Source: an uncultured Bacillota bacterium (GTDB lineage Bacteria; Bacillota_I; Bacilli_A; RFN20; CAG-826). Taken from it: a DNA stretch of 64,000 nucleotides. A program made the position numbers and the translations under genes. Numbering within the stretch: the stretch's first letter is position 1; each line of letters starts with the position of its first letter. The stretch is from contig CASEFL010000001.1 in assembly GCA_949287245.1 (NCBI GenBank), positions 138,973-202,972 of the forward strand, written 5' to 3'. A model generated the notes under the pieces. It made no database searches. It saw nothing but the letters and a program-made list of their open reading frames with translations, and was not told the DNA's origin. This document shows positions 8,361 to 57,806 of the stretch, piece after piece.

Positions 8361-9219
8361 ACCCTAATTTACCTAGCATTCGCACATCATCCCGCCAATG
8401 AGGAGAAGCAACAACAAAGCAATGCAATCGCACATGTTTAGAAAAACGTGAACGCAAATCCTTTTCTGCATTAGAGCGAATTTTTTCGATCATTTGGCCG
8501 TTTTTCCCGATAACAATTCCTTTTTGAGAGTCTCTTTCAACATAAATATGAACTTTTGCTTCAATTTCTTTCTCATTTTCCTTACAAGAATCGACATGAA
8601 CAGCGGCTTGATGAGGGACCTCGTTATGAAGAAGCAAAAGCATTTTTTCGCGAATACTTTCTTGAATGAAATAGGAAGTATCTTTATCGGTTGTTGTTCC
8701 TTCTTCATAAAAGGGCAAAGATTCTGGTAGCTGTTTTTCCACCCAAAGGCGCGCATCTTTTAAGCCGAAATTGTTCTTAGCGCTCATCTCAAGATAAGGA
8801 ATTCCAAATAAAGAGGGGATTTTTTCTTTAATTTTTTCCATTTCTGGAGCCGTCATTAAATCAATCTTATTAAGCAATAACAAAATAGGAGCATCACTTT
8901 TTATACGGCGAAAAGCTTTTGCCGCTTCCTCTAAATTTTCATGGACATCTACAAGAAAAAGAATTGCATCTACTCCAGATAAAGCACGCCGTGCTTTCCG
9001 CATCATCTCTTTTTCTAATGAGTTACTTCCTTCCATTAAACCAGGAGTATCAATAAAAGCAATTTGTGCACCACTATCTTCATAAATTCCTAAAATATCT
9101 TCTCTAGTCGTTTGCGCTTTTGGGGTAACAATAGCCACTTTTTTGGATAAAAGAGCATTAAGAAATGTACTTTTTCCTGCATTAGGAAGGCCTAAGATTG
9201 CAACCGTTCCCGCTTTCAT
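8338..9219 (-). CDS. era: GTPase Era
   Basis: 293-aa ORF with G1 'GLPNAGKST' and G3 'DTPG' motifs, an NKID motif and a C-terminal KH domain. It overlaps cdd and recO, indicating an operon. Confidence 0.95.
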   Translation of the reverse strand: MKAGTVAILGLPNAGKSTFLNALLSKKVAIVTPKAQTTREDILGIYEDSGAQIAFIDTPGLMEGSNSLEKEMMRKARRALSGVDAILFLVDVHENLEEAAKAFRRIKSDAPILLLLNKIDLMTAPEMEKIKEKIPSLFGIPYLEMSAKNNFGLKDARLWVEKQLPESLPFYEEGTTTDKDTSYFIQESIREKMLLLLHNEVPHQAAVHVDSCKENEKEIEAKVHIYVERDSQKGIVIGKNGQMIEKIRSNAEKDLRSRFSKHVRLHCFVVASPHWRDDVRMLGKLGYGKRRDR

Positions 9220-9617
9220 TGCATATCCTCTTCTTCAAAAGCATAAGGGAGAAGTTCTTCTATTGTTGTTTGCTGAATATCTCCGCATAAATTTGCTAAA
9301 TATATAGGAGCGCGCAAAGGGAAAAGTTCCGATAATACCTGACGACAAGCCCCACAAGGAGAAACTGGGCGTTTACAGTCAGCAACAATTGCTAAAGCAA
9401 GAAAATCTTCCTTCTTTTTTCCTTCCATTAAGGCATGATATATCGCATTTCTTTCCGCACACATGCATAAAGGATAACTTGCATTTTCCACATTTGCTCC
9501 ATAATAAATAGAACCATCGCTGCATAAAAGAGCAGCCCCGACAGCAAAATGACTATAAGGAGAATAAGACAGTTTTCTTGCGCTTATTGCTTCTTCAATT
9601 AATTGTTTCGTTTCCAT
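9216..9617 (-). CDS. cdd: Cytidine deaminase
   Basis: 133-aa ORF with the zinc-binding motifs 'CAERNAI' and 'PCGACRQ'. Confidence 0.9.
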   Translation of the reverse strand: METKQLIEEAISARKLSYSPYSHFAVGAALLCSDGSIYYGANVENASYPLCMCAERNAIYHALMEGKKKEDFLALAIVADCKRPVSPCGACRQVLSELFPLRAPIYLANLCGDIQQTTIEELLPYAFEEEDMQ

Positions 9618-10102: not shown

Positions 10103-11275
10103 CTAAGAAAGCGAGAGAAAGCGTTCAAAAAAAGCATCCGCTAATGCCTGTCTTTTCTTTTTCTGCAAAAAATATTGTAAAAAACTACGAAACGTCTTGC
10201 TCAGAATAAAAAGAGATAAAAAAGCGCTAATAAAACCATAAAAGGAACTTCCTTGTTCATTGCCCCATAAGGCAAGAAAAGATAGACCAAATAAAGGAAG
10301 GAGAGAAGACAAATCAAATACCCGCAAGGAAAAAGCAAGTTTTGATGCGGTTTTGCTTAATTCTGCCCCTTTTTTATATGCGAAAGGTTCTTCTAACATT
10401 TTGGCCTCTTTCCTTTCTAGTTTTTCTTTCTCTTTTGTAAAGAAATGTTCAAGGGGAAAATAACAAATTTCTAAAAGCAAGATAAAACAGGAAGCAAGAA
10501 AATAACCAAAGCCAAAAAAAGATACATAGGTAAAAAGACAAAGGGAAACAAGCAACGAGGCAAAAGAAGAGATGGGGCCAAGGAATACGCTTCCCTTATA
10601 ACGTTGGAACAAAAAGTAGTCTTCGCTATTTCCTCTTTCCGGAACAAGAAATAAATGATCTTTTTCAAAACGATTTAAGAAAAGAAAAATCGCTCCTTCC
10701 CTTAATAGAAAGAGGAGAAAAGCGGTTAAAAAGAAGGAAAATGCATATAAAAGACGTGGATCTTCCTCTAGAAAATAAAAACCAATAAGAAAAAACACCA
10801 ATTCAAGAAACAACAAAGAAAGGAGCAGTGGTAGAGTAAAATAATCAATTAATTTCGGTCTTTTTGGAGGAATTTCTTTTCGATCAAAATACCCCTCACC
10901 AAAAATTAACGACCATTTTTTCATCAATTCTTTCCCTTTTATCCAGTATTTTCCTTTTGCAGGATCATCAAGATAAAAATATTCCTTTCTCTTTTTTAAT
11001 AAAACGACAAGATGTCCATCTTTTCCTTCATTTAACAATAAAAGCAAAGGAAAACGTTTTGCTTCCTCTAAACAATTTGCATAACAAGAACGTTTCCAAA
11101 TAAGATTTACTCCAGCCTGTTTGGCTAAAAAACTCAGCTCTTGTAAATCATAAGCACCTTCATGATCCCTTTTTAAATAACGCCATCCTTTTTGTTTAGT
11201 AAAATAAATAAGAAAGGAACGTGTTGCGGCGTATCCACAACTATCGGGTTTTGCTTGATAAACTGTACCATTCAT
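10103..11275 (-). CDS. Peptidase C39 (double-glycine leader peptidase) domain fused to a ~6-TM membrane domain; no ABC ATPase domain
   Basis: The N-terminal ~130 aa carry the C39 motifs Q-x5-C ('YQAKPDSCGYAA'), His ('DGHLVVLL') and 'DDPAKGK'. The following ~240 aa form hydrophobic TM helices. No nucleotide-binding domain is present in the ORF or in neighbouring genes. Confidence 0.7.
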   Translation of the reverse strand: MNGTVYQAKPDSCGYAATRSFLIYFTKQKGWRYLKRDHEGAYDLQELSFLAKQAGVNLIWKRSCYANCLEEAKRFPLLLLLNEGKDGHLVVLLKKRKEYFYLDDPAKGKYWIKGKELMKKWSLIFGEGYFDRKEIPPKRPKLIDYFTLPLLLSLLFLELVFFLIGFYFLEEDPRLLYAFSFFLTAFLLFLLREGAIFLFLNRFEKDHLFLVPERGNSEDYFLFQRYKGSVFLGPISSFASLLVSLCLFTYVSFFGFGYFLASCFILLLEICYFPLEHFFTKEKEKLERKEAKMLEEPFAYKKGAELSKTASKLAFSLRVFDLSSLLPLFGLSFLALWGNEQGSSFYGFISAFLSLFILSKTFRSFLQYFLQKKKRQALADAFFERFLSLS

Positions 11276-11357: not shown

Positions 11358-11543
11358 TTACCACTTTTTACGGCGGGCCATTTCACTTTTTTGCTTCCGG
11401 CGAAGGGCGGTTTTGAGATAAAACTCACGTTTTTTCATTTCCATGACAACACCAGATTTATTCACTGCACGTTTGAAACGACGAATGCCTTCATCAACAT
11501 TTTCATCTTGACGAATTGTTACTTTAATTGCCATTCTCTTCAC
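11358..11543 (-). CDS. rpsU: 30S ribosomal protein S21
   Basis: 61-aa protein 'MAIKVTIRQDENVDEGIRRFKRAVNKSGV...ARRKKW', typical of S21. A GGAGGTG ribosome-binding site precedes it. Confidence 0.95.
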   Translation of the reverse strand: MKRMAIKVTIRQDENVDEGIRRFKRAVNKSGVVMEMKKREFYLKTALRRKQKSEMARRKKW

Positions 11544-15487: not shown

Positions 15488-16510
15488 TTAAACGGAATTC
15501 TTATTTTTTAAAGACAAAACCATTTCATAGGTTTCTTTTAATTTTTCCCCAACGCGGAATAAGGAACGTTCTTCGGCTACACGCCAACCCTCTTCTAGAA
15601 TTTCGCAATTTTTTCCCTTTTCCCGAAGTGAAGAAATAATATTCTTAAATTCATAGGGTGTATTTCCCATATAACAATTTTTCTTATCCGTTAACCAAGA
15701 GGAAAATACGGGAATCGGGCGTACAATCAAAGGAGTTTTGCTCGCTAAAGCTTCAAGAGCGACTATGCCTTCTGTTTCTTCATACGTAGGAAAAAGAACC
15801 GCCAAAGCTCCTTGATAACCCCCTTTAATCAAATCTCCTTTGCAATATCCAGGAAATGAGACGTTTTTTGGCGCATTTTTCATTGCTTTTAACACTTTTT
15901 GTTCCGTTAGAATTTTTTGCAGACTCCCTAACCAAAGAAAGCGGACATCAGGAAGTAAGCGGGCGGTTTCAATAAAATCAAAAATCCCCTTACGAACAAA
16001 AGGAAAACCAACACCTAACACATAAGGTTCATCACCTAATTGGAATTTTTCACGAAACAAAGCCACTTTTGTCTCATCCGCGGCATATTCTTCTAAATCA
16101 ATGCCATTTGATATATCTTTTATTTGACTTGGTGCAAGAAATTTTGTTAAAAGTTCTGCTGCATAAGGGGTAGGCGTGATAATAAAATCCGCATTCGTAT
16201 ACATTCTTCTTAAGAAAAAACGATAAAAAGGCTCTATAAGTTTCCAAAAACGGAAACTATTTTGGAAATCTTCATATGTACTATGACCGTGAACAATAAC
16301 AGGGATACCTTTTTTCTTACATTTTCGCAAAAGAGAATAACTTTTTGGCCAATAGGTATTGATATGAACAAGATCAACATCGCATTCTTCAAAAGAAGTA
16401 GTAGTCTCAACACCGGCAAAAGATAGGGCCCGTAATTGATGGGACATTGCGCGCCCAATTCCCGAACGAGCAATATGCTCCTGCCCTTCAAAATAAATAC
16501 AAACTTTCAT
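15488..16510 (-). CDS. GT4-family glycosyltransferase (glycolipid/MGS-like synthase)
   Basis: 340-aa ORF with a GT-B fold and the C-terminal E-x7-E motif ('EETEGIVALEALA'). It overlaps deoC by 4 nt. Confidence 0.8.
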   Translation of the reverse strand: MKVCIYFEGQEHIARSGIGRAMSHQLRALSFAGVETTTSFEECDVDLVHINTYWPKSYSLLRKCKKKGIPVIVHGHSTYEDFQNSFRFWKLIEPFYRFFLRRMYTNADFIITPTPYAAELLTKFLAPSQIKDISNGIDLEEYAADETKVALFREKFQLGDEPYVLGVGFPFVRKGIFDFIETARLLPDVRFLWLGSLQKILTEQKVLKAMKNAPKNVSFPGYCKGDLIKGGYQGALAVLFPTYEETEGIVALEALASKTPLIVRPIPVFSSWLTDKKNCYMGNTPYEFKNIISSLREKGKNCEILEEGWRVAEERSLFRVGEKLKETYEMVLSLKNKNSV

Positions 16511-17184
16511 CGTCTTGCACTAAGAAGTTCTTCCATAATGTCCACAGAAGCAGAACAACCTAAGCGGTTTGCGCCACTATCAATCATCCGATAGGCTTCT
16601 TCTAAAGTATGAATTCCTCCAGAAGCCTTGACGCCCATTGAATCACCAACGGTATTTCGCATTAACAAAACGTCTTTGGCTTTTGCGCCCCATTTTCCAA
16701 AACCAGTGGATGTTTTAACAAAATCAGCACCCGCTCTTTTTGCAGTTAAAGCGCTTTGAATAATTTCTTTCCTTTCTAAATAACAAGTTTCAAGAATAAC
16801 TTTTAATACAATGTGACGGTTGGGAGATACATCTTCTAAAGCTTGTTTGACTTTCAAAATTTCCCCCTCGATAAACTTATATTCCCCAGCATGAACCATG
16901 GCAATATTTTGCACCATATCGATTTCATCGGCTCCCGATAACACCGCTTCTTTTGCCTCACGAGCCTTTTGTTGAGGAGTTGTTTGGCCTAAAGGAAAAC
17001 CAACAACAGTGCAAACCTTAACATCGCTTTTTTGTAAAAGACGTGCGGCAACAGGAACATAAAAAGGATTCACGCATACGCTCATAAATTGATAGCGCAT
17101 CGCCTCATAACATAAACGCGTGATGTCGGCTAAAGTTGCATCAGCCTTCAAATTCGTATGGTCGAAATATTTGCTAAATCTCAT
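16507..17184 (-). CDS. deoC: Deoxyribose-phosphate aldolase
   Basis: 225-aa ORF with a TIM-barrel DeoC signature, including the Schiff-base lysine context 'DFVKTSTGF'. Confidence 0.9.
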   Translation of the reverse strand: MRFSKYFDHTNLKADATLADITRLCYEAMRYQFMSVCVNPFYVPVAARLLQKSDVKVCTVVGFPLGQTTPQQKAREAKEAVLSGADEIDMVQNIAMVHAGEYKFIEGEILKVKQALEDVSPNRHIVLKVILETCYLERKEIIQSALTAKRAGADFVKTSTGFGKWGAKAKDVLLMRNTVGDSMGVKASGGIHTLEEAYRMIDSGANRLGCSASVDIMEELLSARR

Positions 17185-20800: not shown

Positions 20801-21268
20801 TTAATATTTTTCACCTCCAATAGAGGCATATTCTTCATATAAGGCAAGACATTCTTCACGCGATAATTCGCGACAGAAATTTTCCCGCTTTTCTTTCTTG
20901 GTTAAAAGTTCATAAAAGGCATTATCACGAAATCCAATCTTGACTTCAGTATCTTCCACATTACATCCATAATAGACGCGGTTAATATTAGCCCAAAGAA
21001 TCGCTCCTAAACACATTGGGCAGGGATAGCCTGTGGTATAAAGTTCTGCACCAGATAAATCAAAACTTCCTAAGTTTTTACAGGCATCATGAATGGCCAT
21101 CATCTCACCGTGACATGTAGGATCTTGCTGATGAATCACTTCATTATGCCCACGACCAATAATTTTTCCTTCTTTTACAATTACCGCGCCAAAAGGACCA
21201 CCATGTCCGGCATGAATTCCTTTTTTGGCTTCAAGAATTGCTTCGTGCATATATTTTTCTTCTGCCAT
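20801..21268 (-). CDS. guaD: Guanine deaminase GuaD-like (CDA-fold nucleoside/nucleobase deaminase)
   Basis: 155-aa ORF with 'GGPFGAVIVKEG', 'DPTCHGEMMAI' and 'PCPMCLGAI', close to B. subtilis GuaD. The zinc motif reads HGE rather than the usual HAE. Confidence 0.75.
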   Translation of the reverse strand: MAEEKYMHEAILEAKKGIHAGHGGPFGAVIVKEGKIIGRGHNEVIHQQDPTCHGEMMAIHDACKNLGSFDLSGAELYTTGYPCPMCLGAILWANINRVYYGCNVEDTEVKIGFRDNAFYELLTKKEKRENFCRELSREECLALYEEYASIGGEKY

Positions 21269-35271: not shown

Positions 35272-37248
35272 ATGAAAAAACGAAATCAAATGGCTGTCGC
35301 CCGTTATGTAGAATCGATTATAAAAGAAATTGAAAATATTCCCCAAACCATGGAGTCTTTATATCTTTTTTTAAAAGCTCATTATTCACAGGAAATATGC
35401 GCATACTTTTTCGATGAGGATGGAAAAAGAAAAAAACAAAGTTATCACGAGTTATTTAGACAAGCCGAATATCTTGGCTCGCATATGAATTCTATCTTTT
35501 CAAAAATAGAATCAACACAACCAATTGCTTTAAAATATCGCAACTCTCCCGAATGGCCTGCATTGTTTTTTGGAATTTTAATGAGCAATCATCCTGTGCT
35601 CCTTTTGGATGCAAAACTACCTGAGGAGAATACAAATAATTTGCTAAAACAAGCAAACGCAGGATCAATCATTTGTAACGAAAGCGAAACCTATCTTGTT
35701 CCCTCTTACCGTCTAAGCGATTTAAAAAAATCGACACCCAAAGAGCCAGTTACTTGGAACGATGAGATTATGTTTTGCTCTTCAGGCACTACAGGTGCAG
35801 CGAAAATTATGGTTTTTGACGGGAAGGCAATTTTTGGACAAATTATCTCGGCAAAAATGGTTGCAAATGAAACAAGCGACATTATCTATGAAGGATCATT
35901 ACGCAACTTTGCTATGATTCCTTTTCATCATATCTTCGGCTTTGTTGCCGTATTTTTATGGTATTCAACCTTAGGAAAAACACTTGTTTATCCTGCAAGT
36001 AATGCAACGAAAGATTTACTTTATGCTATAAAAAAAGGTGAATGCGATCACATTTATAGCGTGCCACTTTTATGGGATGGAATTGCCCAAACTGTTGAGA
36101 GAACTTTCTCACTAAAAAAACCAAAAATCCAGAACTTATTTCATAAAATGATTTCCTATAATTTAGGAGAAATATCTAAAAAAGAAGCAGGTATTGCATC
36201 GTTTTCTTTCTTTCAAAACATAGTTAGAAATCGAATTTTAGGAAATAAACCGGTTTTTTGTATTTCTGGTGGTGGGTATTTATCAAAAGAAACATTGCGC
36301 TTAATTAATGGCCTTGGCTATCCCCTTTATAACGGATATGGAATGACAGAAATTGGAGTTACTTCTGTAGAACTTTCTCCTGATGTAAAGACAAGATTGC
36401 TTGGCTCGATAGGAAAACCATTCTTTGGGGTAAATTATCAACTGCACGAAGGAGAACTGGAAGTTCAATGCCGTTCCATGCATATAGCCTCAATTGTTAA
36501 TGGTGTAAGAGAATCCTTTCCGCGAGATCAATATCTGAAAACAGGCGATATTGCTGAAAAAATTGACGATCGGTGGTACATTCGCGGAAGAAAAAAAGAT
36601 GTCATTATTAATAATGACGGGGAAAATATATACCCTGACGAAATTGAATATTATTTCAAGGAAATTTCGCTTATAAAAAATTGCGTCGCCTTCGGGGTTA
36701 CAGAAGGTCATAAAGAGCATATTGTTCTTATTATTGAATTAACGCAAAGCCCGCGGGAGGAAGTTTTATTCAAAGTAAAAGAAGAATTAACAAACATTAA
36801 TAACAAGTTAAGTTCTTCAAAAAAAGTATCCGAATTCGCGATTTCTTCTAGCAGTTTGCCTTTAGCGAATTCAATGAAAATTAAACGAGGTGAAGTGAAA
36901 AAACTTTATCTAGAAAACCCTGATTCATTCCTTTATTTTGACAAAAAAAGACGCATAAATTATGAAGAAAACATATCTTTTGATGGTTATGACCATGAGG
37001 AAGTAAATGAAATTTTAAATGAAATTCGACGCACTTTCTCTGATAACCTCTCCTTACCGATTGATCAAATTTCTGACGATGCAATCTGGGATAGTGATTT
37101 AGGGGGAGATTCGATGTCTTATATAAGCATGATTGCTGATTTAGATGAACATTTCCAAGTGGATATTCCCGAGGATAAATACGGCAAAGTCGGATCTGTT
37201 AAGGGTTTTACTAAACTTATTCTAGAATTACGTCATGGGAAGAAATAA
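35272..37248 (+). CDS. Standalone adenylation (AMP-binding) – peptidyl/acyl carrier protein didomain
   Basis: 658-aa ORF with A-domain motifs ('SSGTTGAAKIMV', 'YNGYGMTE', 'YLKTGD', 'GRKKDVI'). The C-terminal ~80 aa carry the carrier-protein phosphopantetheine site 'DLGGDSMSYISM'. Confidence 0.75.
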   Translation: MKKRNQMAVARYVESIIKEIENIPQTMESLYLFLKAHYSQEICAYFFDEDGKRKKQSYHELFRQAEYLGSHMNSIFSKIESTQPIALKYRNSPEWPALFFGILMSNHPVLLLDAKLPEENTNNLLKQANAGSIICNESETYLVPSYRLSDLKKSTPKEPVTWNDEIMFCSSGTTGAAKIMVFDGKAIFGQIISAKMVANETSDIIYEGSLRNFAMIPFHHIFGFVAVFLWYSTLGKTLVYPASNATKDLLYAIKKGECDHIYSVPLLWDGIAQTVERTFSLKKPKIQNLFHKMISYNLGEISKKEAGIASFSFFQNIVRNRILGNKPVFCISGGGYLSKETLRLINGLGYPLYNGYGMTEIGVTSVELSPDVKTRLLGSIGKPFFGVNYQLHEGELEVQCRSMHIASIVNGVRESFPRDQYLKTGDIAEKIDDRWYIRGRKKDVIINNDGENIYPDEIEYYFKEISLIKNCVAFGVTEGHKEHIVLIIELTQSPREEVLFKVKEELTNINNKLSSSKKVSEFAISSSSLPLANSMKIKRGEVKKLYLENPDSFLYFDKKRRINYEENISFDGYDHEEVNEILNEIRRTFSDNLSLPIDQISDDAIWDSDLGGDSMSYISMIADLDEHFQVDIPEDKYGKVGSVKGFTKLILELRHGKK

Positions 37249-37630: not shown

Positions 37631-38068
37631 TATTGTTTTAAACGAGACGTTTAAAATATCTTCATCAATTTTAATTACAAGATAGGAAGGTGTTCCATCT
37701 CTTGGAAAAGAACAACTCCCCGGGCATAAGACACGAATATTAGAAAGCATAATATCTTCTTTTTTATGCGTATGACCATGAAGGAAGACTCTTACACCCC
37801 TTTTATAAAGTGTTGTTAAATCTTTTTCACTTATCGGTTTATGTTCAGCACGTAAAAGACCAATGGGAGTTTTAATCTCTCGATATAAAGGATAATTTTT
37901 ACTAAAAAAGTCACAATTCCCTTTAACTGCCGCAAAAGGAAAAATATTTTCCTCATATCCCCCAACATCACCCAAATGAAGGTAACAATCGGCATATGGT
38001 TCATTCATTAATATGATTCTTAAAGGCTCAAATTCTCCATGAGTATCCGAAGCGACAACAATTTTCAT
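37628..38068 (-). CDS. Calcineurin-like metallophosphoesterase (YfcE/MJ0936 family)
   Basis: 'IVVASDTHGE', 'LHLGDVGG' and 'FLHGHTHK' metal-ligand motifs. Its start overlaps the holA stop by 4 nt. Confidence 0.75.
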   Translation of the reverse strand: MKIVVASDTHGEFEPLRIILMNEPYADCYLHLGDVGGYEENIFPFAAVKGNCDFFSKNYPLYREIKTPIGLLRAEHKPISEKDLTTLYKRGVRVFLHGHTHKKEDIMLSNIRVLCPGSCSFPRDGTPSYLVIKIDEDILNVSFKTI

Positions 38069-39039
38069 GCATGAAATCCTATAATAAATTTTTCAAAAGC
38101 TTCATCAGCATCCATTTTTCCGGTCATTATGTTTTTCTCACACTCATAAAGATTGTGAAACTGTTTTCCAAATTCCTGCTCATCCAATTCACTAGAACGT
38201 TGCAATAACCGTTTTGCCCGCCAAACATTCATTTTTAAAATATTGCTACAATCCATCTCATCTTTCCCTTCATGAAAAAGATGATTAACCAAAGACTGAT
38301 CACGCATTTGGGTGGATAAAGAATGAATTAACACGATTGGTTCGTTTCCTTGAAAGCGAAGATCACGATACACTTTTAATGCTTCCGCAAAATTATTAGA
38401 AAATAAAGCATTTGCTAGAGCAAAAGAAGAGTCCTCTAAAGGTTCGGGAGTCATTTTTTCTATGTCTTCTTTATGGAGAGTCTTGTCACCAGCATATACG
38501 ATTAATTTATTGGCCTCGCTTATAAAGGTCGCATAATCTCCATGGATTCGACGAAGCAATTCCTTTCGTGCTTCAAAATCAATAGCAACACCACGATTTT
38601 TAAAATATCGTTCCATATACGTGTTCCACTGAGCATCATTGAATTCACTAACCTGTTGAAATAAAGCACCACTTTCTTTTAATACTTTATAAAAATCACA
38701 TTTTTGATCCAATTTATTGCAATATACGAGAATATATAAATCAATATCGTCACTAAGCTCTTCTAAGACATCAAAAAGAGGCTTTTTATCATCACCTTTT
38801 AACAGTTTCTTTTGCTTTTCATCAGATGATAAATAATGGAAATTCTCCGCAATAACAACTTTTTTCTCGACACCTAAGGGTAAATAAGAGCATTCTTCCG
38901 CTAAAGTAAGAAGAGTTTCTTTTCCCATATCTAAGCGACATTCATTCAATCCTTCGCGCACAAAAGAAGATTTTTTTAATAAAACTGATAAATGGCTTTT
39001 AATCATCTGCGATTGCGGTGAAAAAAGAACAGTAATCAT
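38065..39039 (-). CDS. holA: DNA polymerase III delta subunit HolA
   Basis: 324-aa ORF with the HolA/YqeN-like C-terminal helical domain ('NVWRAKRLL'). Its position directly downstream of comEC matches Bacillus. Confidence 0.75.
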   Translation of the reverse strand: MITVLFSPQSQMIKSHLSVLLKKSSFVREGLNECRLDMGKETLLTLAEECSYLPLGVEKKVVIAENFHYLSSDEKQKKLLKGDDKKPLFDVLEELSDDIDLYILVYCNKLDQKCDFYKVLKESGALFQQVSEFNDAQWNTYMERYFKNRGVAIDFEARKELLRRIHGDYATFISEANKLIVYAGDKTLHKEDIEKMTPEPLEDSSFALANALFSNNFAEALKVYRDLRFQGNEPIVLIHSLSTQMRDQSLVNHLFHEGKDEMDCSNILKMNVWRAKRLLQRSSELDEQEFGKQFHNLYECEKNIMTGKMDADEAFEKFIIGFHA

Positions 39040-39065: not shown

Positions 39066-41137
39066 TTAGATAAATCCAAAATATGTAATCGTTCCTTCCT
39101 CATCTGTTCGTCGAATTTTAATATCAAGATCTTGCAATCGTTTAAGAACCTCGTTATCTGGATGACCATACGAATTTCCTTTTCCTACCGAAATTATTGC
39201 TTCATCAGGTTCAATTGCCTTCAAAAATTCTAAAGATGATGAAGTTATAGATCCGTGATGCCCAATTTTTAACACATCTGCTTTTAAACTTTCATTGTCA
39301 TCTAAAATTTTCTTTTCTATTTCGATAGGAGCATCCCCCATAAACAAGAAGTCACGATTAAGGAAATTTTCTAGATATAGGACTAATGATTTAGAATTTT
39401 CGTCCTCACCTCCATAAATATTTAAGTTATTAAAAGTTAAAGATCCTACTTTTAAAGGAAATTCCTCTTCCTCTCGAACAATATCTTTAATTAAAAAAGA
39501 ATCATACAAAGAAGGTAACGCTCCGTCATGATCAAAATCTCCATGGGTAATAATCACACAATCAAGTTTTTTTATACCACGAGTCTTAAAAAACGGAATT
39601 AAAGTTTCCTCCGCTAAATCAAAAGTTTTAGTTCCCCCTGTATCGATAAGTACAGTAGTTCTGCCCTCACGAATTAATATAGCGTCCCCTTGCCCGACAT
39701 TAAGAAAAGTAACTTCTTTCGTTAAAAAAGAAAAAGAAGGAAAAAGATTAAGAAAAAGAAGAGGCGTTACATATAAAAAGATGCTAATTTTTCCCCAAAA
39801 ATGGAACCCAAGGGAGACCATAAGAAGAAAAATGGCTAAGAAAAAGAAATGAAAGTAGAACGCCCCTTCCGGATATAAAAACGGAACACAAATATCTATT
39901 CTTTCCCATAATTTGGCCATATTCATGAGAAAGGAAGCATAGACATTTAATGCCCCAGGTAACGGCAGGAATAGTCCTAACACACCAAGTAAACAGAAAG
40001 GGGCAACAAAAGGGAAAAAGAGCATAGTTCGCAAAGGAGAGAAAAGCGATAATTCGTTTTTACTAGGAAAAGAAGGAAAAAGAAGAAGAATTAGAAATAC
40101 AAATGAAATCATTTTTCTTTTCCCAGGCGAAAAACGAAGGAAAAGGCCTGAGGATAAAGAAAAGAAAATAGAAAGAAGAAAACTATAAAGAAACCCTTTA
40201 TCCATACACAAAGTGGAATCAATAAGGAGAAAAAGAATTCCTATACAACTAGTAAGGATAAGAGATGGAACGCGCTTTTGATTTTTTAATTCGGCATAAG
40301 AATGCACGCTTTTTGTAAGAAAAATTCTCCAAATTCCCACTTTATGTACTAGAAAAGGAAGAGGCAAAAATGCAAGAACCCAAGTAAGAATTAACGTTGT
40401 TTTGCTCGTTAGAAATCTTCCAAAAACCATGAATTAAACCGATTATATGCCTGATAAATGAAACCACTTGCACTTAAACAATAAATCAATCCGGCCTCTT
40501 GAAATACATCTAGGGCAATAGCTTCATAATCTTTCCGATCAAAAAGTAGGGAATCTAACAGTATCGAGGCTTCTCCTCCTACCCCTTTTAACGCATTTAG
40601 CGACCATTTTCGAAAGCGAAGAGGAAGAGAAAATATGTTGATGATATCTCCTTGGAATGAGGAAGTTACTCCTTTATCTACTAAGTAAGTCGTGAAAGAA
40701 AAGCGACCTTCGTATTCCGTAAAGGATAATGGCGAGAAATTTCCATTTAAAGATAAAATATCCCCAACCTCGCGAAGGCAGTCTTTTTCATATACGTACA
40801 CTCGCGAAAAACCACTTTATAAAAGAAAGTAATTATCTTTTGCACGAACCACAATTCCTGTTATTTCCAACTTTCCCAAAAAATCTTCTTTTGGTAGAAA
40901 GAAAACAATTAATCCGATTAAAGCGCCTAAAAGGTAAACTATATAGCGTTTTTCTTTGCGAAAGAAAAACAAACATAAAAGAAGGGAAAGAAAAACTGGT
41001 AAAGCAGAAAATCTTGGCAATAGTCGCAGAAACAATCCACTAAGGAAAAGGCCGAAAAAAGCGGGAGGGGCAAAAGGGAGAAGAAACTTTGCCCGCTCCT
41101 TAAAACGAGTTAGCGGAGAGTCACAAGATCTTTGCAC
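39066..41137 (-). pseudogene. comEC: comEC/rec2 DNA-uptake channel gene, apparently disrupted (in-frame TAA plus a frameshift)
   Basis: Three consecutive ORFs cover one ComEC-length locus of about 690 aa. ORF 40817-41137 is the N-terminal TM part, ORF 40409-40801 the DUF4131-like OB region, and ORF 39066-40430 the competence TM domain plus an MBL domain ('LNVGQGDA', 'ITHGDFDHDG'). The first two share a frame and are separated only by TAA at 40817-40819. The second and third differ by one nucleotide in the A5/T5 run 40422-40426; a sixth T would restore the frame. Confidence 0.6.
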
Positions 41138-41658
41138 TTTTCAAATGTTGCTGGTCCAATACCCTTAACATCATCAAGCTGTTCAATACATTCAAAAGCA
41201 CCCTTTTCGAGCCGATAATCCACAATGGCTTGGGCAACGGTTTCACTAAAAGCGCTAACCACTTCCCGCAAACGATCTTTGCTATCGGTGTTAATACATG
41301 CTTTTTCAATTGGTTCAGTCGCACAAACGTCACTGTTGTCGTATAAAGGCGCAATATAGAAGCTTGTTCTTGTACCAATTTCTAAATTAGCATCGTAAGC
41401 ACTTGGATCAGCGTTTCCTGTTGCAGACCCGGCAGCCAAAATTAAATCACCTAAAGTAGAATTTGACTCAATAAGATAAGTTCCTTCGCGATTTACTTCA
41501 CCAGTAATCGATACTTGGATTGTTTCTCCATCATTAACAACAATACCATTGCTTACTAAATCGCCATCACTCATCCCGTTATCGACCGCACCTAAAACAA
41601 CTAATCCGATGATGGTCGCGATTACAACACCAATGATGACTTTAATCATTTTTATCAC
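41110..41658 (-). CDS. comEA: ComEA DNA receptor (helix-hairpin-helix competence protein)
   Basis: 182-aa ORF with an N-terminal TM anchor, a SLBB-like domain and a C-terminal tandem HhH ('IEQLDDVKGIGPATFEKCKD'). Confidence 0.85.
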   Translation of the reverse strand: MIKMIKVIIGVVIATIIGLVVLGAVDNGMSDGDLVSNGIVVNDGETIQVSITGEVNREGTYLIESNSTLGDLILAAGSATGNADPSAYDANLEIGTRTSFYIAPLYDNSDVCATEPIEKACINTDSKDRLREVVSAFSETVAQAIVDYRLEKGAFECIEQLDDVKGIGPATFEKCKDLVTLR

Positions 41659-47715: not shown

Positions 47716-48633
47716 TTATTCACCAAAAACCCAGTCGATCGCGGAAGGATTATCCACATATGGATTGCGGTTTCCTTGAATTTCATAAACTGCTTCGTTT
47801 CGATCAATTTCTTTTTGAGAAACAGGGTCTTCCTTTGCCCATTTAACAAACATTGTTTGACTCCAAGTAGTTAAACCTAAAGAACGTGTTGGGGTAATAT
47901 TTTGCCTTTGGTTATTCACCCAAGAATTGTGCGAGGAATAACAAGTAACAAAATAAAAGTAAATTCTTGCAAAATCCCCTTTATACTCATCAATGGGTTC
48001 AAAAACTGTTCCCGTATAAGCAGGATCAGAAGACTTCCCTAGTTTTGAACCATTTTTAGAGGTATAGGTGGCACTTCCTACTTCACCAAGAGGGAAATTA
48101 CTACGTTTCCCGTTCACATATCCGTCTGTAGGAATAATATGATGCAAATCGGTATACATGGGGTTTGCATCATCAAACCAACTTTTTGGCACACTATGTT
48201 CGCGGTTATAGCAATCCCCCTCGTTTTTGTAATTTCCACATTGTTGGCCTGTTTTGGTCCATTTTTCATCACTATACATGTCCCAAAGGCTTCCATCTTC
48301 GCGAACATCGGTTTCCCAAAAAGCGCTCCATAATTCTTTATAAGAAAGCTGCGTATGGGGACGAATCGTTGAGGTTAAAGACTTCATTAAAGATACGCCG
48401 CGTAACGACCAATCAACATCTTCATAATACCTTTCAACTTCTATGGGAAAATCAGGCAATGAAAAAGAAAAAGAGGTGTTAGAAGAAGAATTTTCAGTAA
48501 AAGAGCTACTTTCTTTAGAAGAAGGATCAAAAGAAGAGAAAGAAGAACTCTCTCCCCAAACACAGCCGCTTAAACTAAAGATTCCCATTAAACTTAGAAG
48601 GATAATCTTTTTTGATACTTTCATAGTCTTCAT
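47716..48633 (-). CDS. Extracellular endonuclease I family DNase (EndA/Vvn-like), lipoprotein
   Basis: Signal peptide plus lipobox (LSGC) and a Ser-rich linker, with the endonuclease I motifs 'NREHSVPKSW' and 'QGNRNPYVDNP'. Confidence 0.8.
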   Translation of the reverse strand: MKTMKVSKKIILLSLMGIFSLSGCVWGESSSFSSFDPSSKESSSFTENSSSNTSFSFSLPDFPIEVERYYEDVDWSLRGVSLMKSLTSTIRPHTQLSYKELWSAFWETDVREDGSLWDMYSDEKWTKTGQQCGNYKNEGDCYNREHSVPKSWFDDANPMYTDLHHIIPTDGYVNGKRSNFPLGEVGSATYTSKNGSKLGKSSDPAYTGTVFEPIDEYKGDFARIYFYFVTCYSSHNSWVNNQRQNITPTRSLGLTTWSQTMFVKWAKEDPVSQKEIDRNEAVYEIQGNRNPYVDNPSAIDWVFGE

Positions 48634-48636
48634 CCA

Positions 48637-49905
48637 TTATGCGTTTTGCCAAGCAAGAGGCATCTGACGGTTATTTTTAAACCATTCAGTGTCCTTTAAT
48701 TTTAGTGAATTATTAGAAAACTTCCACGTCTCTTTTCCCACTTCATCATATTCGACAACAACCGTACCATTCATGGGTCGATAAAAACGAGAATCTTCCC
48801 ATGACCCTTCTTGCGTAACATAAACGCGGTCAGTATAAGGCGCGATGCGGTCAATTGTCTCTTGGGCAGGAAAACTGTGATTGGGATCAGAGGCATATTC
48901 TTTAGTCCCTGCTGTACATTCAAAAACAATAGCGTCAGGACTTGTCGCCTTTAAAAGTTCCTCCCCTGTCGCGGTATAAGAACCATGATGGCCACCCTTA
49001 TATAAAACAACATTCGCAGGCAAATTATTTTCCTTCACTAAAGAATGCTCGCTCCAAGCCTCCGAATCTCCTGTAAAAAGCATGCTTTTCTTTCCTTGAT
49101 GAAAAAGAACGGAAATAGAATAGTCGTTTTCTTCACTAAAACTACCTCCGACTTCTGGATAGTCATTTTTAAAGTCAGTACGGTCATGGTCATAAAAGTA
49201 GTTATAAAGTACTTCCATAGAAGTTCCTTCACCAAAGTTAAAAATCCTTTTTGCCCCATTATTTTCTTTTACGCAGTCCAAAGCAGTATAAACTTCCGTC
49301 CCTCTTTCTTTCAAAAAGTTCACGGCCTCTAAATAATCTTTATAAATTTGAGTTGAGGCATCCGTAAGAGGAAATTGAATTAATGTATCCACCGCAAAAT
49401 TATAAAAGACACCTGTTCGTCCATTAGGAAGAGAATCGTCTTGATTCCCAACAAAACCAGCAATATGGTCTTGATGAGCATGAGTAGCAATCACCAGTTC
49501 AAGTTTTTTATCTGGAACATATTGATTTAAATATTCACAAATAACGGCTCCTGAACCTTTTCTAGCGCCCGCATCAATTAAAATGTCGTAATCTCCAGCC
49601 TTAATGTATGTGCAGTCGCCCGTATACTGTGTATTTAAATCAAGAAAATGAAAAGATATTGGAGTGAAACCATCCTCGGCACCCGTACTAGAACTCGTTG
49701 AGTTTGTTGACGTATTTAGAGAACTTGACGAACTCGAACCTTCATTTCCACTACCTGATGAAAGTGAGGAAGAAAAAAGAGGAAGGATAAAGGTGTAGGC
49801 AACATATACGCTAACAGCAAGCAAAACAATCAAAAGTAATGACAATAAAGCGTAGACAAGTTTTTTCTGTTTTCTTTTTCTTTTTGGCATAATTATATTA
49901 TCCAA
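48637..49905 (-). CDS. Membrane-anchored extracellular MBL-fold metallo-hydrolase (ComEC-C-terminal-like)
   Basis: N-terminal TM helix, a Ser-rich linker and the MBL motif 'ATHAHQDHIAGF'. Confidence 0.7.
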   Translation of the reverse strand: MDNIIMPKRKRKQKKLVYALLSLLLIVLLAVSVYVAYTFILPLFSSSLSSGSGNEGSSSSSSLNTSTNSTSSSTGAEDGFTPISFHFLDLNTQYTGDCTYIKAGDYDILIDAGARKGSGAVICEYLNQYVPDKKLELVIATHAHQDHIAGFVGNQDDSLPNGRTGVFYNFAVDTLIQFPLTDASTQIYKDYLEAVNFLKERGTEVYTALDCVKENNGAKRIFNFGEGTSMEVLYNYFYDHDRTDFKNDYPEVGGSFSEENDYSISVLFHQGKKSMLFTGDSEAWSEHSLVKENNLPANVVLYKGGHHGSYTATGEELLKATSPDAIVFECTAGTKEYASDPNHSFPAQETIDRIAPYTDRVYVTQEGSWEDSRFYRPMNGTVVVEYDEVGKETWKFSNNSLKLKDTEWFKNNRQMPLAWQNA

Positions 49906-51521: not shown

Positions 51522-52823
51522 TTAACGAATATAATCAAGAAGAATAGAAGGTGCAGCAATTTTTTCTTTTTTAATTAAGAAAGCATCGCTTGCATCATCT
51601 TTTGCTCTTCCGATATCCTCCTTATTCGTATAAAGGGTGCAAAGTACATCTCCTTTTTGAACAAAGTCTCCAACCTTTTTTGCTAAAACAATTCCTGAGG
51701 AATGATCAATTTCATCTTGCATGGTTGCTCTTCCTGCTCCAAGACGCATAGCCGTTAAACCGATAGCTAAGCTATCAATATGGTGAACATAACCATCTTT
51801 TTCAGCATAAACAGGAATAATCAGAGAAGAAATAGGGAATTTGCAGGGATTTTCAATATAAGAAACATCTCCTCCTTGCTTTATTACCATTTCTTTTAAT
51901 TTTTCTAAACCTTTCCGATTATCAATCGCTTCCTGTATTTTCCTTTCCCCTTCTTCTTCTGTTTTTGCAATTTTTGCTTGGCAAAGCATAATTGACCCTG
52001 CCTTTAAAATTAACTCGTGGAAATCTTTTGGCCCATGTCCATTAAGCTCATCGATTGCTTCTTTTACTTCTAAGGCATTTCCTACGGCATAGCCAAGCGG
52101 TTCTTCCATCCCGGTTAAAATCGCCCTTGTATCACGATTTAAGTGTTTCCCGATTTTTACCATGAGATGCGCCAATTCTTGTGCAGACTTTTTTGTTTTC
52201 ATAAATGCGCCTGCACCAACTTTTACGTCTAATAAAATGGTATCCGCCCCTGCAGCAAGTTTTTTACTCATAATAGAAGAGGCAATTAATGGGATAGATT
52301 CAACCGTTCCTGTAACATCACGAAGCGCATAAAGCTTTTTATCTGCAGGATCAACTTCTTTTGTTTGTCCAACAATGGCCAAACCGATTTCGTTCACCTG
52401 ATGAATAAAGTCATCAATGCTTAATTGAATTTTAAAACCCGGAATAGATTCTAATTTATCTAAAGTTCCCCCGGTATGACCAAGACCTCTTCCCGACATT
52501 TTAGCTAATTTTGCCCCACAAGAGGCTACCAAAGGTCCTAAAGCAAGAGATGTTTTATCTCCGACACCACCCGTTGAGTGCTTATCAACAGTCGCCCCTT
52601 GAATTTTTGAAAGATTAATCGTCTCGCCGCTATGTTCCATAGCGTCTGTTAAAAAGGAAGTTTCTTCTTCATTCATTCCTTGAAACAAAACAGTCATTAA
52701 GAATGCGCTCGTCTGGTAATCAGGAATCGAACCATTACTTACTCCACGAATAAAATATTGAATCTCGTCTTTGGTCAATATTTTTCCATCTCTTTTTTTC
52801 TCGATTAAATCAACCATTCTCAT
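51522..52823 (-). CDS. pdp: Pyrimidine-nucleoside (thymidine) phosphorylase
   Basis: The start is set at MRMVDLIEKKRDG, which has an AGGGAG ribosome-binding site. The 'DKHSTGGVGD' phosphate-binding motif is present. Confidence 0.9.
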   Translation of the reverse strand: MRMVDLIEKKRDGKILTKDEIQYFIRGVSNGSIPDYQTSAFLMTVLFQGMNEEETSFLTDAMEHSGETINLSKIQGATVDKHSTGGVGDKTSLALGPLVASCGAKLAKMSGRGLGHTGGTLDKLESIPGFKIQLSIDDFIHQVNEIGLAIVGQTKEVDPADKKLYALRDVTGTVESIPLIASSIMSKKLAAGADTILLDVKVGAGAFMKTKKSAQELAHLMVKIGKHLNRDTRAILTGMEEPLGYAVGNALEVKEAIDELNGHGPKDFHELILKAGSIMLCQAKIAKTEEEGERKIQEAIDNRKGLEKLKEMVIKQGGDVSYIENPCKFPISSLIIPVYAEKDGYVHHIDSLAIGLTAMRLGAGRATMQDEIDHSSGIVLAKKVGDFVQKGDVLCTLYTNKEDIGRAKDDASDAFLIKKEKIAAPSILLDYIR

Positions 52824-52875
52824 AAACGAAACACTCCCTATCACATCTAACTCTTTTTTCAAGTATAATTATAGT

Positions 52876-55359: not shown

Positions 55360-57489
55360 TTAATGAATAGATTTCTTCTTTACTCCTACACCAATTAGAG
55401 TTTCTTTTGGGATAAAAAGACGCCTTGTTTTAAATTCGGGCTTAGAAACATCGCCCGTATTATCTAAAACAAGAATATGATCTTCTTTGCATTCATAGGT
55501 AAGAGGCTCTCTTGCCGGATTAAAGAAGAAATCTAGTTCCTCCCATTTTCCTAAACCATCGCCACTTAAATGAACATGTAAGGCTGCGCCAAGATCCTCA
55601 AAGTCCACCTTCGGTCCAATAAGGGACGCGTCATAATCAGCTAAGGCAGGAATCCCTTTGCGGAAACGAATGAGGGAACATACATAATCGTACATCTCTT
55701 TTCGTTCATCGAGGATGCGATATGGCATTTGGTTATAAATATCGGGTGAATTATACGTATTTGGACGACCAAATTTGGTTAAACCAAGTTCTTGACCCAT
55801 GTGAATAAAAGGCATTCCCCGTGAAAGCAAAATAAAAGCAATTCCTAATTTTGCAAGTTCAAGCTTTTCTTCGCTTGGTAAATCAGGACGAGCCTCACTT
55901 AGCCAGTCAAAAAAAGTTTTATCATCATGGCACTCAATATAGTTTACCGATTGATTGGCGGTTTTAAACTTTGCCCCAAGATAACCATAAGGATGACAAG
56001 AACCTAAATAACTATATTTAATGGCGTCTTTAACCGACATATCACAAGCTAAAAATTTCTTTACTGTTTCCCGGAAGAAATCATTAAAAAAGCCAAAACC
56101 AGGAAGAAGAGAAGCATTATCCATGTGTCCTAAAGGTACATTGACTTCTCCACCCATATTCCATCCTTCTCCATATAAAAGGAAGGATGAATCTTTGCTT
56201 TTGCCGTATCGTTCGATGGCTTTTAACGTATCCACATCAACAATACCCATTAAATCAAAACGGAAACCATTCACACCGTAAAAATCAATCCAGTGTTTCG
56301 CACTATCGACAATTAATTTCCGTACCATGGTCCGTTCGCTTGCAACATCGTCTCCACAATAGGAAGTATTCGCCATTCTCCCGTCTTTTTTTCTTCGGAA
56401 ATAGTAATTCGGAACTATTTTTTCAAAGGAAGAACGCTGATATTCATAAACGTGGTTGTATACGGCATCCATGATGACGCGGATTCCCTTTTTATGAAGG
56501 GTATCAATCATTTGCCGGCATTCATTAATTCTAGATAAGGGATTTTCTACATCTTGGGAATAAGAACCTTCCGGAACAAAATATTGTTGAGGATCATACC
56601 CCCAGTTATAAGAGGAAAGAGGGTGCCGTTCATCAATGGTGGCAAAATCATAAAAGGGGAGAATTTGCACGTGAGTGACTCCCAAAGAGAGAAGATAATC
56701 AAGTCCTGCTGGATTCCCTCCCTTGCTTTTTCTGCCTTCTTCTACTAAGCCAAGATACTGCGCTTTATGAAAAATATTGCTGTCTTTATTCACCGAAATA
56801 TCACGAATGGATGTTTCATATACAATAGCGGAGGTTGGGGAAGGATAAGAAGGTAAATCTTTTGTTTCTACGCTTAATGGCGTGCATAAAGTAGGATTTA
56901 AAACAACAGAATATTCTCCATTTGGTCCAGAAGCTTTCGCATAGGGATCAATGGCTTCAATTGTTACTTCACTATTGGTGACAACAAAAGAGTAACGGGC
57001 CAAGGAATAATCTCCTTTAAGGCGCAAGCGCCATACACCATGTTCTCCCCGCTCCATCTCGCGGAAATGCCAACGTCCGGTAAGGTTATCGCGTCTTCGT
57101 ACTTTTAAAACAACTGAGCTTGCAAGAGGTGCCCAAAGAACAAAATCGGTGTAATCTTCATGCCAAGTGGCCCCTAAATCGTTTCCGTGATACGCATATT
57201 GCCGATCAAAATCAGGAAAAGAAGTGGCTTCAGATACATCAAGGGGAATTAAGGGATAGTTATAAATGGATAAGGCATAACTATGACCAAGTTCTAAAGG
57301 CGAAGAAAGATGATATTCCGCAATTAAAACATTCGATGTGCTATTAATACGGCTAGCTTTTAAAGGAAGATAGTTTTTCTTATCCACAAGCAAAAGAGCA
57401 TCAAAAGGCTCATAAGAAAGCGAACTAAATAAGACTAAACGAATAAGACTTGGTTCCACAAGTCGTGCTGAGAGAAATGTATCTTTCAT
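55360..57489 (-). CDS. pulA: Type I pullulanase (GH13), cytoplasmic
   Basis: 709-aa ORF with GH13 regions 'DAVYNHV', 'GFRFDLMG', 'EGW' and 'YIECHDD'. No signal peptide. Confidence 0.9.
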   Translation of the reverse strand: MKDTFLSARLVEPSLIRLVLFSSLSYEPFDALLLVDKKNYLPLKASRINSTSNVLIAEYHLSSPLELGHSYALSIYNYPLIPLDVSEATSFPDFDRQYAYHGNDLGATWHEDYTDFVLWAPLASSVVLKVRRRDNLTGRWHFREMERGEHGVWRLRLKGDYSLARYSFVVTNSEVTIEAIDPYAKASGPNGEYSVVLNPTLCTPLSVETKDLPSYPSPTSAIVYETSIRDISVNKDSNIFHKAQYLGLVEEGRKSKGGNPAGLDYLLSLGVTHVQILPFYDFATIDERHPLSSYNWGYDPQQYFVPEGSYSQDVENPLSRINECRQMIDTLHKKGIRVIMDAVYNHVYEYQRSSFEKIVPNYYFRRKKDGRMANTSYCGDDVASERTMVRKLIVDSAKHWIDFYGVNGFRFDLMGIVDVDTLKAIERYGKSKDSSFLLYGEGWNMGGEVNVPLGHMDNASLLPGFGFFNDFFRETVKKFLACDMSVKDAIKYSYLGSCHPYGYLGAKFKTANQSVNYIECHDDKTFFDWLSEARPDLPSEEKLELAKLGIAFILLSRGMPFIHMGQELGLTKFGRPNTYNSPDIYNQMPYRILDERKEMYDYVCSLIRFRKGIPALADYDASLIGPKVDFEDLGAALHVHLSGDGLGKWEELDFFFNPAREPLTYECKEDHILVLDNTGDVSKPEFKTRRLFIPKETLIGVGVKKKSIH

Positions 57490-57806
57490 GGAATTATTAC
57501 TACCGCTACTGCGTATCCTCCGTCATGACTAATTGATAAAGGGTAAATTTCCCCACAAACTTCTAGGCTTGGACCCTCATTTTCATAATGATGCACCATA
57601 ATTTCTTTAAAGGGAAGAAAACCAAGACCTTTTTGTATGGCTTTTAAATAGGCTTCTTTTGCTGCCCAAATGCCCGCAAGAGTAGAAGAAGGATGGGATG
57701 AGTTTTCATAATAGGCATGTTCTTCTTCCGTTAAAATCCGATTTAGAAAATGAGAAGAGGGCGAGGAAAGGCGTGAAATTTTAACTAAATCAATTCCCAC
57801 CTTCAT
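57486..57806 (-). CDS. acpS: Holo-[acyl-carrier-protein] synthase (4'-phosphopantetheinyl transferase, AcpS type)
   Basis: 106-aa ORF with an 'MKVGIDLVKISR' start, a 'WAAKEAYLKA' region and 'SISHDGGYAVAVV'. Confidence 0.85.
   Translation of the reverse strand: MKVGIDLVKISRLSSPSSHFLNRILTEEEHAYYENSSHPSSTLAGIWAAKEAYLKAIQKGLGFLPFKEIMVHHYENEGPSLEVCGEIYPLSISHDGGYAVAVVIIP

Follow-up and report, generated by a model that had tools for sequence, protein, structure and literature searches.

The product of comEC/rec2 is a membrane channel and nuclease that imports single-stranded DNA in natural transformation. Cryo-electron microscopy of ComEC from Neomoorella carbonis has revealed three transmembrane (TM) helices ahead of an oligonucleotide/oligosaccharide-binding (OB) fold (PMC13539106). 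Decay of competence genes, such as comM and pilQ, into pseudogenes at the strain level is well documented for Acinetobacter baumannii and Legionella pneumophila, where a gene that is intact in some strains is a pseudogene in close relatives through recent and probably recurrent loss of transformability (PMC11472951). Domain-based surveys have reported ComEC as absent from Erysipelotrichaceae- or Acholeplasma-like (Acholeplasmataceae) lineages (PMC6299819). The locus described here occupies positions 39066-41137 of a stretch of 64,000 nucleotides (hereafter the window) on contig CASEFL010000001.1 of an uncultured Bacillota bacterium. It is very probably a genuine and evolutionarily recent comEC/rec2 pseudogene allele in which two independent loss-of-function mutations have been fixed in a strain lineage. 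Like the A. baumannii and L. pneumophila cases, it pairs an intact gene in one strain with a pseudogene in a close relative. Unlike them, the target is comEC, the damage was done by point lesions and not by insertion of a mobile element, and the host is uncultured, with a phenotype that is predicted only.

The comEC-length frame runs on the minus strand from 41137 to 39066 and, from the open reading frame (ORF) listing and the sequence, is broken into three consecutive ORFs. The initial annotation had described a single ComEC locus of about 690 aa split in this way, and the exact coordinates agree with that description: ORF1 lies at 40817-41137 (106 aa), ORF2 at 40409-40801 (130 aa) and ORF3 at 39066-40430 (454 aa), all on the minus strand. 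ORF1 and ORF2 share a frame (41137-40801 = 336 = 112 x 3) and are separated only by TAA at 40819-40817 and five sense codons (SGFSR). When the whole stretch was translated in the frame of ORF1, it read ...KDNYFLL*SGFSRVYVYEKD.... ORF3 is offset by one base, and the register switches at the minus-strand sequence TGG TTTTT GG, with the T5 run at 40426-40422. Addition of one T in silico yielded a continuous frame of 690 codons reading ...NSWFFGRFLTSK..., as had been foreseen for a sixth T that would fuse the second and third parts.

Viewed as pieces of one gene on the minus strand, fragment 1 (40817..41137) comprises codons 1-106 and the premature stop, and covers the three N-terminal helices and the first OB-fold strands. 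It begins with a GTG codon, and the same GTG is called as the start of the intact allele on another contig, L002 (4209-6281). The nonsense codon TAA at codon 107 occupies 40817..40819. [quoted passage not shown] The T5 homopolymer (A5 on the plus strand) at 40422..40426, in codon 238, is the site of the 1-nt deletion, with the alignment gap at 40427. Fragment 3 (39066..40420; codons 239-690 in the -1 frame) holds the remaining transmembrane helices of the competence domain and the C-terminal metallo-beta-lactamase (MBL) nuclease domain, in which the catalytic motifs THGDFDH, GHHGS and YGHP are intact.

An intact counterpart of this locus exists in another assembly. Clustering at 90% identity groups five proteins around ORF3: two of 454 aa, two shorter fragments (130 aa and 106 aa) and P0122 with 690 aa; protein P0123 is identical to ORF3 of the window. 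P0122 reads ...NYFLLQSGFSR... and ...NSWFFGRFLTSK..., which is exactly what the repair gives, with Gln in place of the stop, and the in silico T insertion in the window likewise gives the P0122 sequence WFFGRFLTSK. P0122 is encoded on contig L002 (ENA ERZ17292903), which matches 7.5 kb of the window at 99.4% identity; the alignment has 43 mismatches and a single gap. This gap is the missing homopolymer T, a base that is absent in the window and in a further contig, L001, and is T in L002, so that the intact allele has T6 (TGG TTT TTT GGA = W F F G). At 40819 the window and L001 both have T on the minus strand; L002 has C there, and its codon 107 is CAA (Gln). The two restoring states predicted by the initial annotation, a sense codon and T6, thus occur together as CAA + T6 in L002 and P0122, and an uninterrupted frame of ~650-700 codons is present in this sister allele and lacking in the window copy.

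Both lesions were also found outside the window. L001 (ENA ERZ17292900), a 231-kb k87 contig, differs from the window by four single-nucleotide polymorphisms (SNPs) in 17.4 kb, represents another strain or sample and carries both lesions, and so does L003, a Logan assembly of ERR10610680 that is 100% identical to the window over 13.6 kb. TAA and T5 are fully linked in all three disrupted assemblies. The earlier proposal that two lesions reflect real gene decay and not a single sequencing error is upheld by L001, L003 and the intact L002. A scan of JGI metagenomes for the T5/T6 site returned 0 matches. A search with the intact protein against genome contigs did not retrieve the window's own species, the best match being 51% identical, and a literature search for RF39 together with comEC, or for the sample accessions, found nothing.

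The comparison with orthologues suggested by the initial annotation showed single uninterrupted ORFs with Gln kept at the stop position. Orthologues at 34-60% identity are single ORFs of ~650-700 aa, and the listed homologues are all single proteins of ~600-700 aa with the exception of a 383-aa fragment (P0056). Gln at codon 107 is kept in the four closest orthologues (P0002-P0005), and in two related contigs (L004 and L006) one ORF fills the space between comEA and holA. Because Gln-107 is kept, the homologues are single proteins and L004 and L006 have a single ORF, the ancestral state is reconstructed as a single ORF with CAA and T6. The comEC of a sister species (contig L022, P0002 cluster) also appears split, and recurrent decay was considered there and rejected, as the break is an artefact that falls on an NN gap of the scaffold. 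A separate observation concerns positions 3001-4432 of L023 (ENA ERZ16268121 scaffold_11582, 5.7 kb), from this 60%-identical sister species, where comEC ends after residue 351 and abuts an oppositely oriented whiA with no Ns. This could be a second independent disruption of comEC by rearrangement, or a chimeric scaffold or misassembly, and it has not been counted as decay.

The locus belongs to a divergent part of the ComEC/Rec2 family. The repaired protein matched TIGR00361 (ComEC_Rec2) with E = 1.5e-44 and 152.2 bits, below the curated equivalog cut-off of 190.05 bits; the match extends over residues 143-682 of the protein and positions 80-663 of the 663 in the model. Pfam Lactamase_B, the only clear Pfam match of the repaired protein, was matched within ORF3 (E = 1.9e-19), the match to DUF4131 was marginal (E = 0.55), and Competence (PF03772) gave no match to the repaired protein at E <= 1. 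In the precomputed annotation of the closest full-length homologues (P0002, P0003 and P0005-P0011) only PF00753 appears, and PF03772 matches are recorded for P0004 (50% identity) and for many relatives at ~40% (P0012, P0014, P0017 and others). Homology is clear, and the weakness of the TIGR00361 and Pfam matches is a property of the clade and no sign of decay.

Structural evidence has given the same assignment. A sequence search of solved structures retrieved 9ic4, the beta-lactamase-like domain of ComEC, and the full-length ComEC chains 9vc6, 30bt and 9vc9. From an alignment of 80 sequences, AlphaFold2 gave a model of the intact allele that had a predicted local distance difference test (pLDDT) score of 91.2 and a predicted template modelling (pTM) score of 0.87. 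Its layout consists of N-terminal helices at 2-79 (2-39, 46-59 and 64-79), an OB-fold beta-barrel at 88-169 (strands 88-99, 103-108, 111-116, 127-136 and 157-169), a helical membrane domain at 175-465 and the MBL domain at 473-690, which is the architecture of the N. carbonis protein. An OB fold preceded by transmembrane helices is therefore present by predicted structure and not by the Pfam DUF4131 threshold. The top fold match found with Foldseek in its PDB copy, which contains the ComEC MBL domain only and not the full-length chains, was the beta-lactamase-like domain 9ic4 (E = 2.8e-13, TMt 0.73). Among 80 homologues, the metal-motif residues H532, D536, H537, H627, H628 and H659 are invariant and D534 is conserved in at least 90%.

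The intact allele resembles ComEC/Rec2 of Bacillus subtilis and N. carbonis (TIGR00361) in its three N-terminal TM helices, OB fold, predicted competence TM domain and C-terminal nuclease, the last with a motif of the H-x-D-x-D-H type, here THGDFDH. It differs from them in that its whole clade is divergent, with 152 bits against the cut-off of 190, no PF03772 and a marginal DUF4131, and the window copy differs further in being interrupted twice, so that it cannot encode the full protein. Homology, architecture, catalytic motifs and synteny were all found, and the curated hidden Markov model thresholds were missed; the locus is a member of the ComEC/Rec2 family, though a divergent one. Pfam-based censuses (PMC6299819) may undercount ComEC where such sub-threshold proteins occur. 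For annotation, the three ORFs are best marked as one pseudogene.

Both lesions fall in structured parts of the model. The first would be a C>T transition that turned Gln-107 from CAA into TAA inside the OB fold, and codon 107 lies in the second OB-fold strand (103-108). The initial annotation was right that the segments on either side of the TAA share a frame; it had placed the stop between a TM segment and a DUF4131-like segment, and the stop is actually within OB-fold strand 2. The second lesion would be one T lost from T6 at codon 238, where the competence domain has a transmembrane helix; this helix (224-240) starts with the conserved S-x-S-G motif, of which S222 is invariant in an alignment of 11 sequences (A1) and S224 and G225 are conserved in at least 90% of an alignment of 80 (A2). 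Translation from the native GTG ends after 106 residues. Inspection of the sequence found no GGAGG-like Shine-Dalgarno motif before either internal start (GTG 40801 or ATG 40430); comEA and greA, by contrast, have clear GGAGG or GAGGAG motifs. The two downstream pieces are probably not made in useful amounts, because a Shine-Dalgarno is missing. One of the lesions presumably inactivated comEC, and the other would have accumulated under relaxed selection. Either may have come first, as the 90% cluster (five members) contains no single-lesion allele, that is, no 241-aa or ~579-aa product.

The divergence between the window copy and the intact allele is small. Within comEC there are 15 synonymous and 9 non-synonymous differences, the nonsense change included (pN/pS = 0.18, from the proportions of non-synonymous and synonymous sites that differ). 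The values for comEC are pS 0.032 and pN 0.0056, against pS 0.015 and pN 0.0005 in the flanks. The denser SNPs in comEC are suggestive of weaker constraint, though not of the pseudogene branch in particular. The window copy has kept all catalytic and invariant residues. When the eight amino-acid differences were polarised by outgroups, three were derived in the window, two were derived in the intact allele and three were ambiguous; there is no excess of derived amino acids on the pseudogene branch. Because the catalytic and invariant residues are retained, pN/pS is 0.18 and no such excess exists, the inactivation is dated as recent by sequence comparison. Three of the four SNPs between the window and L001 are inside comEC (39915, 39626 and 39525), two of them synonymous and one a Ser/Thr change, and at 39626 and 39525 L001 shares the state of the intact allele in L002. 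These three SNPs would fit either relaxed constraint or a small patch of recombination. A sister strain of the same species still has the intact allele, and for this reason the predicted loss of competence is a within-species polymorphism and not a lineage-wide one.

Several points weigh against a recent pseudogene. The pN/pS of 0.18 means that most of the divergence arose under purifying selection, and there is as yet no statistical signal of neutral drift; the three of four SNPs in comEC fit such drift and are not significant (~p = 0.1, an estimate with synonymous-equivalent sites as the null). As L003 does not differ from the window, the two may share their reads, which leaves L001 as the only clearly independent disrupted copy; the ENA accession numbers of L001 and the intact L002 are adjacent, and one study may have produced both. 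The lesions were read from assembled sequence and not from read-level data. The loss of function is itself a deduction from the gene, by which carriers would be unable to import DNA through ComEC. In addition, the evidence on this genome covers the window only, and any further competence genes or second comEC would lie outside it.

Four other accounts of the locus have been considered. The one that survives best, though an improbable one, is that the null allele is kept by selection, with the CAA+T6 and TAA+T5 haplotypes coexisting as a balanced polymorphism in a species of gut Bacilli with a reduced genome. If this were true, the benefit could be, for example, the avoided cost of DNA uptake, or putative surface nucleases encoded at 47716-49905 could suffice for DNA scavenging. 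In a weaker variant, the 454-aa C-terminal fragment may still be made and act as a membrane-anchored nuclease.

It is very doubtful that the locus is still functional, either through recoding (read-through of TAA and a -1 ribosomal frameshift) or as a split protein, for example with the 454-aa fragment as a C-terminal channel and nuclease. All catalytic MBL motifs and conserved channel residues are intact, the ATG of ORF3 overlaps the end of ORF2, and gene callers annotate the pieces as genes. However, the retention of motifs is explained by the recency of the inactivation, and the arrangement is not conserved, as the sister strain and the orthologues have one uninterrupted ORF. In the zero frame the site reads TGG TTT TTG, which does not have the X XXY YYZ form of a slippery heptamer, neither internal start has a Shine-Dalgarno, and both breaks interrupt secondary-structure elements, the stop cutting a beta-strand of the OB fold and the frameshift cutting a transmembrane helix beside the conserved SASG motif.

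Equally slight is the chance of phase-variable (contingency) competence, the initial annotation's second suggestion, in which slipped-strand mispairing in the T tract would toggle comEC. The T5 and T6 alleles are both found in nature and the lesion sits in a homopolymer; as in the phase-variable genes of Neisseria, Haemophilus and Campylobacter, a 1-nt change in a homopolymer within the ORF shifts the frame. Contingency tracts in these genera are typically 8 nt or more. In contrast, the tract here is of 5-6 nt only, is no specialised repeat and is ordinary against the background of the window, which has 493 homopolymer runs of 5, 183 of 6, 59 of 7 and 2 of 8 (244 of at least 6); intact comEC alone has 8 runs of 6 or more. 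The site is also not conserved, since the sister-species orthologues have WLLG, WCLA or WFLA in place of WFFG. Moreover, the linked TAA lies 131 codons upstream and cannot be reverted by slippage, so that the gene stays off at any tract length, which is unlike the reversible genes of those genera. The suggestion did not hold up against a short ordinary tract and an upstream nonsense codon.

A sequencing or assembly artefact, with a true genome of CAA + T6 and an intact gene, is very unlikely because the consensus of L001 differs from that of the window and the same assembly series gives the intact allele elsewhere: one lesion is in a homopolymer, the classic site of long-read indel errors, and the window comes from an uncultured organism, probably as a metagenome-assembled genome with which the identical L003 may share reads, but the lesions are of two unrelated types, a substitution is no homopolymer error, both recur four SNPs away in the k87 contig of another ENA assembly, the recovery of the intact allele from another sample of that series shows that the pipeline is not a systematic source of lesions, and no other gene is split in 64 kb despite the 183 runs of 6 and 59 of 7. 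The two-lesion pseudogene thus remains the preferred reading of the locus.

The genes on either side of the pseudogene are in good condition, and the initial annotation's statement that comEA and holA are intact agrees with their full-length ORFs and Pfam matches. The DNA receptor gene comEA (longest ORF 41110..41658, minus strand) matched HHH_3 (E = 1.1e-15) and SLBB (E = 4.5e-6) in Pfam and the ComEA HhH region of TIGR00426 (E = 8e-14). Its likely start is ATG 41649 behind a GGAGG Shine-Dalgarno, which gives the 179 aa called in L001-L003, and a terminator-like hairpin is located upstream at 41738-41707. The gene holA (38065..39039, minus strand), for the delta subunit of DNA polymerase III, matched DNA_pol3_delta_C (E = 5.5e-20) and DNA_pol3_delta (E = 6.5e-8). 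It lies 26 nt downstream of comEC and has only two differences from L002, both synonymous.

The GTG start of comEC overlaps the final 28 nt of comEA (41110-41137) and has no Shine-Dalgarno of its own. The N-terminus MQ.S.D..L..F that follows from this start is also found in P0003 and P0004. The overlap, the missing Shine-Dalgarno and the retention of this N-terminus in relatives at 50% identity suggest that comEC would be translationally coupled to comEA in this clade. With the 28-nt overlap there is no comEB between comEA and comEC, in which the operon differs from the ComEC/Rec2 reference systems. Apart from these, the window has just two deaminase genes, cdd (9216-9617) and one that is TadA-like (20801-21268), neither of which is comEB, and the absence of comEB noted earlier is thus correct for the operon. 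The gene order greA-comEA-comEC-holA-metallophosphoesterase-(rpsT) is retained in relatives, and comEA-comEC-holA was also found in L004, L006 and L022. It matches the order of the comE region in B. subtilis and other Firmicutes, with comEA upstream and holA and rpsT downstream.

Elsewhere in the window, Pfam and NCBIfam scans showed that the other ~60 ORFs are full-length families or long intact ORFs. The housekeeping families found at full length include ispH, sigA, dnaG, glyS, recO, era, cdd, ybeY, dnaK, dnaJ, grpE, hrcA, lepA, fmt, alaS, ruvX, greA, mnmA, dtd, ftsK and RNase J. The one sizeable gap contains a 61-aa ORF (11358-11543) that is presumably rpsU. Scans of the window against Rfam and for tRNAs gave no hits. 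Of all genes in the 64 kb only comEC is split, which argues against poor assembly quality and against genome-wide decay.

Two adjacent genes within 47716-49905 (minus strand) encode proteins with nuclease-type domains. One, a homologue of Endonuclease I (PF04231, E = 1.5e-76), carries a signal of the lipoprotein type (…FSLSGC) and a linker rich in Ser. The other, of 422 aa, combines a TM anchor at its N-terminus with a Ser-rich linker and an MBL domain (motif HAHQDH), and this MBL domain matched, among others, the nuclease domain of ComEC (TIGR00361 positions 549-630, E = 1e-13). Both are likely to be surface-exposed nucleases, judging from these domains and signals. Together with pdp (51522-52862), cdd and deoC (16507-17184), the pair suggests that extracellular DNA could be degraded and its nucleosides salvaged without ComEC.

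Two further genes of the window were noted. A 390-aa protein (10103-11275, minus strand) has an N-terminal C39 peptidase domain followed by hydrophobic segments, without an ATPase domain. Its resemblance to the Mbov_0121-family peptidase-ABC transporters (profile length 673) is limited to their N-terminal part. A 658-aa protein (35272-37248, plus strand) combines adenylation (AMP-binding) and carrier (PP-binding) domains and stands alone. Its gene is the only long plus-strand gene in an otherwise minus-strand block, and its position is conserved in L001, in L003 and in the sister species (L022). The acpS gene is at 57486-57806.

The comEC of the window is a new example, in an uncultured lineage, of a known phenomenon, and as an ordinary strain-level loss it is of little general importance. 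It does offer a clean and datable case, in which intact and two-hit null alleles of comEC are ~0.6% apart in uncultured low-GC Bacilli. The case fits the known picture that natural transformability is often gained and lost within species. Overall, the clade of sub-threshold ComEC proteins to which the locus belongs, although a side observation, is possibly more useful than the pseudogene itself.

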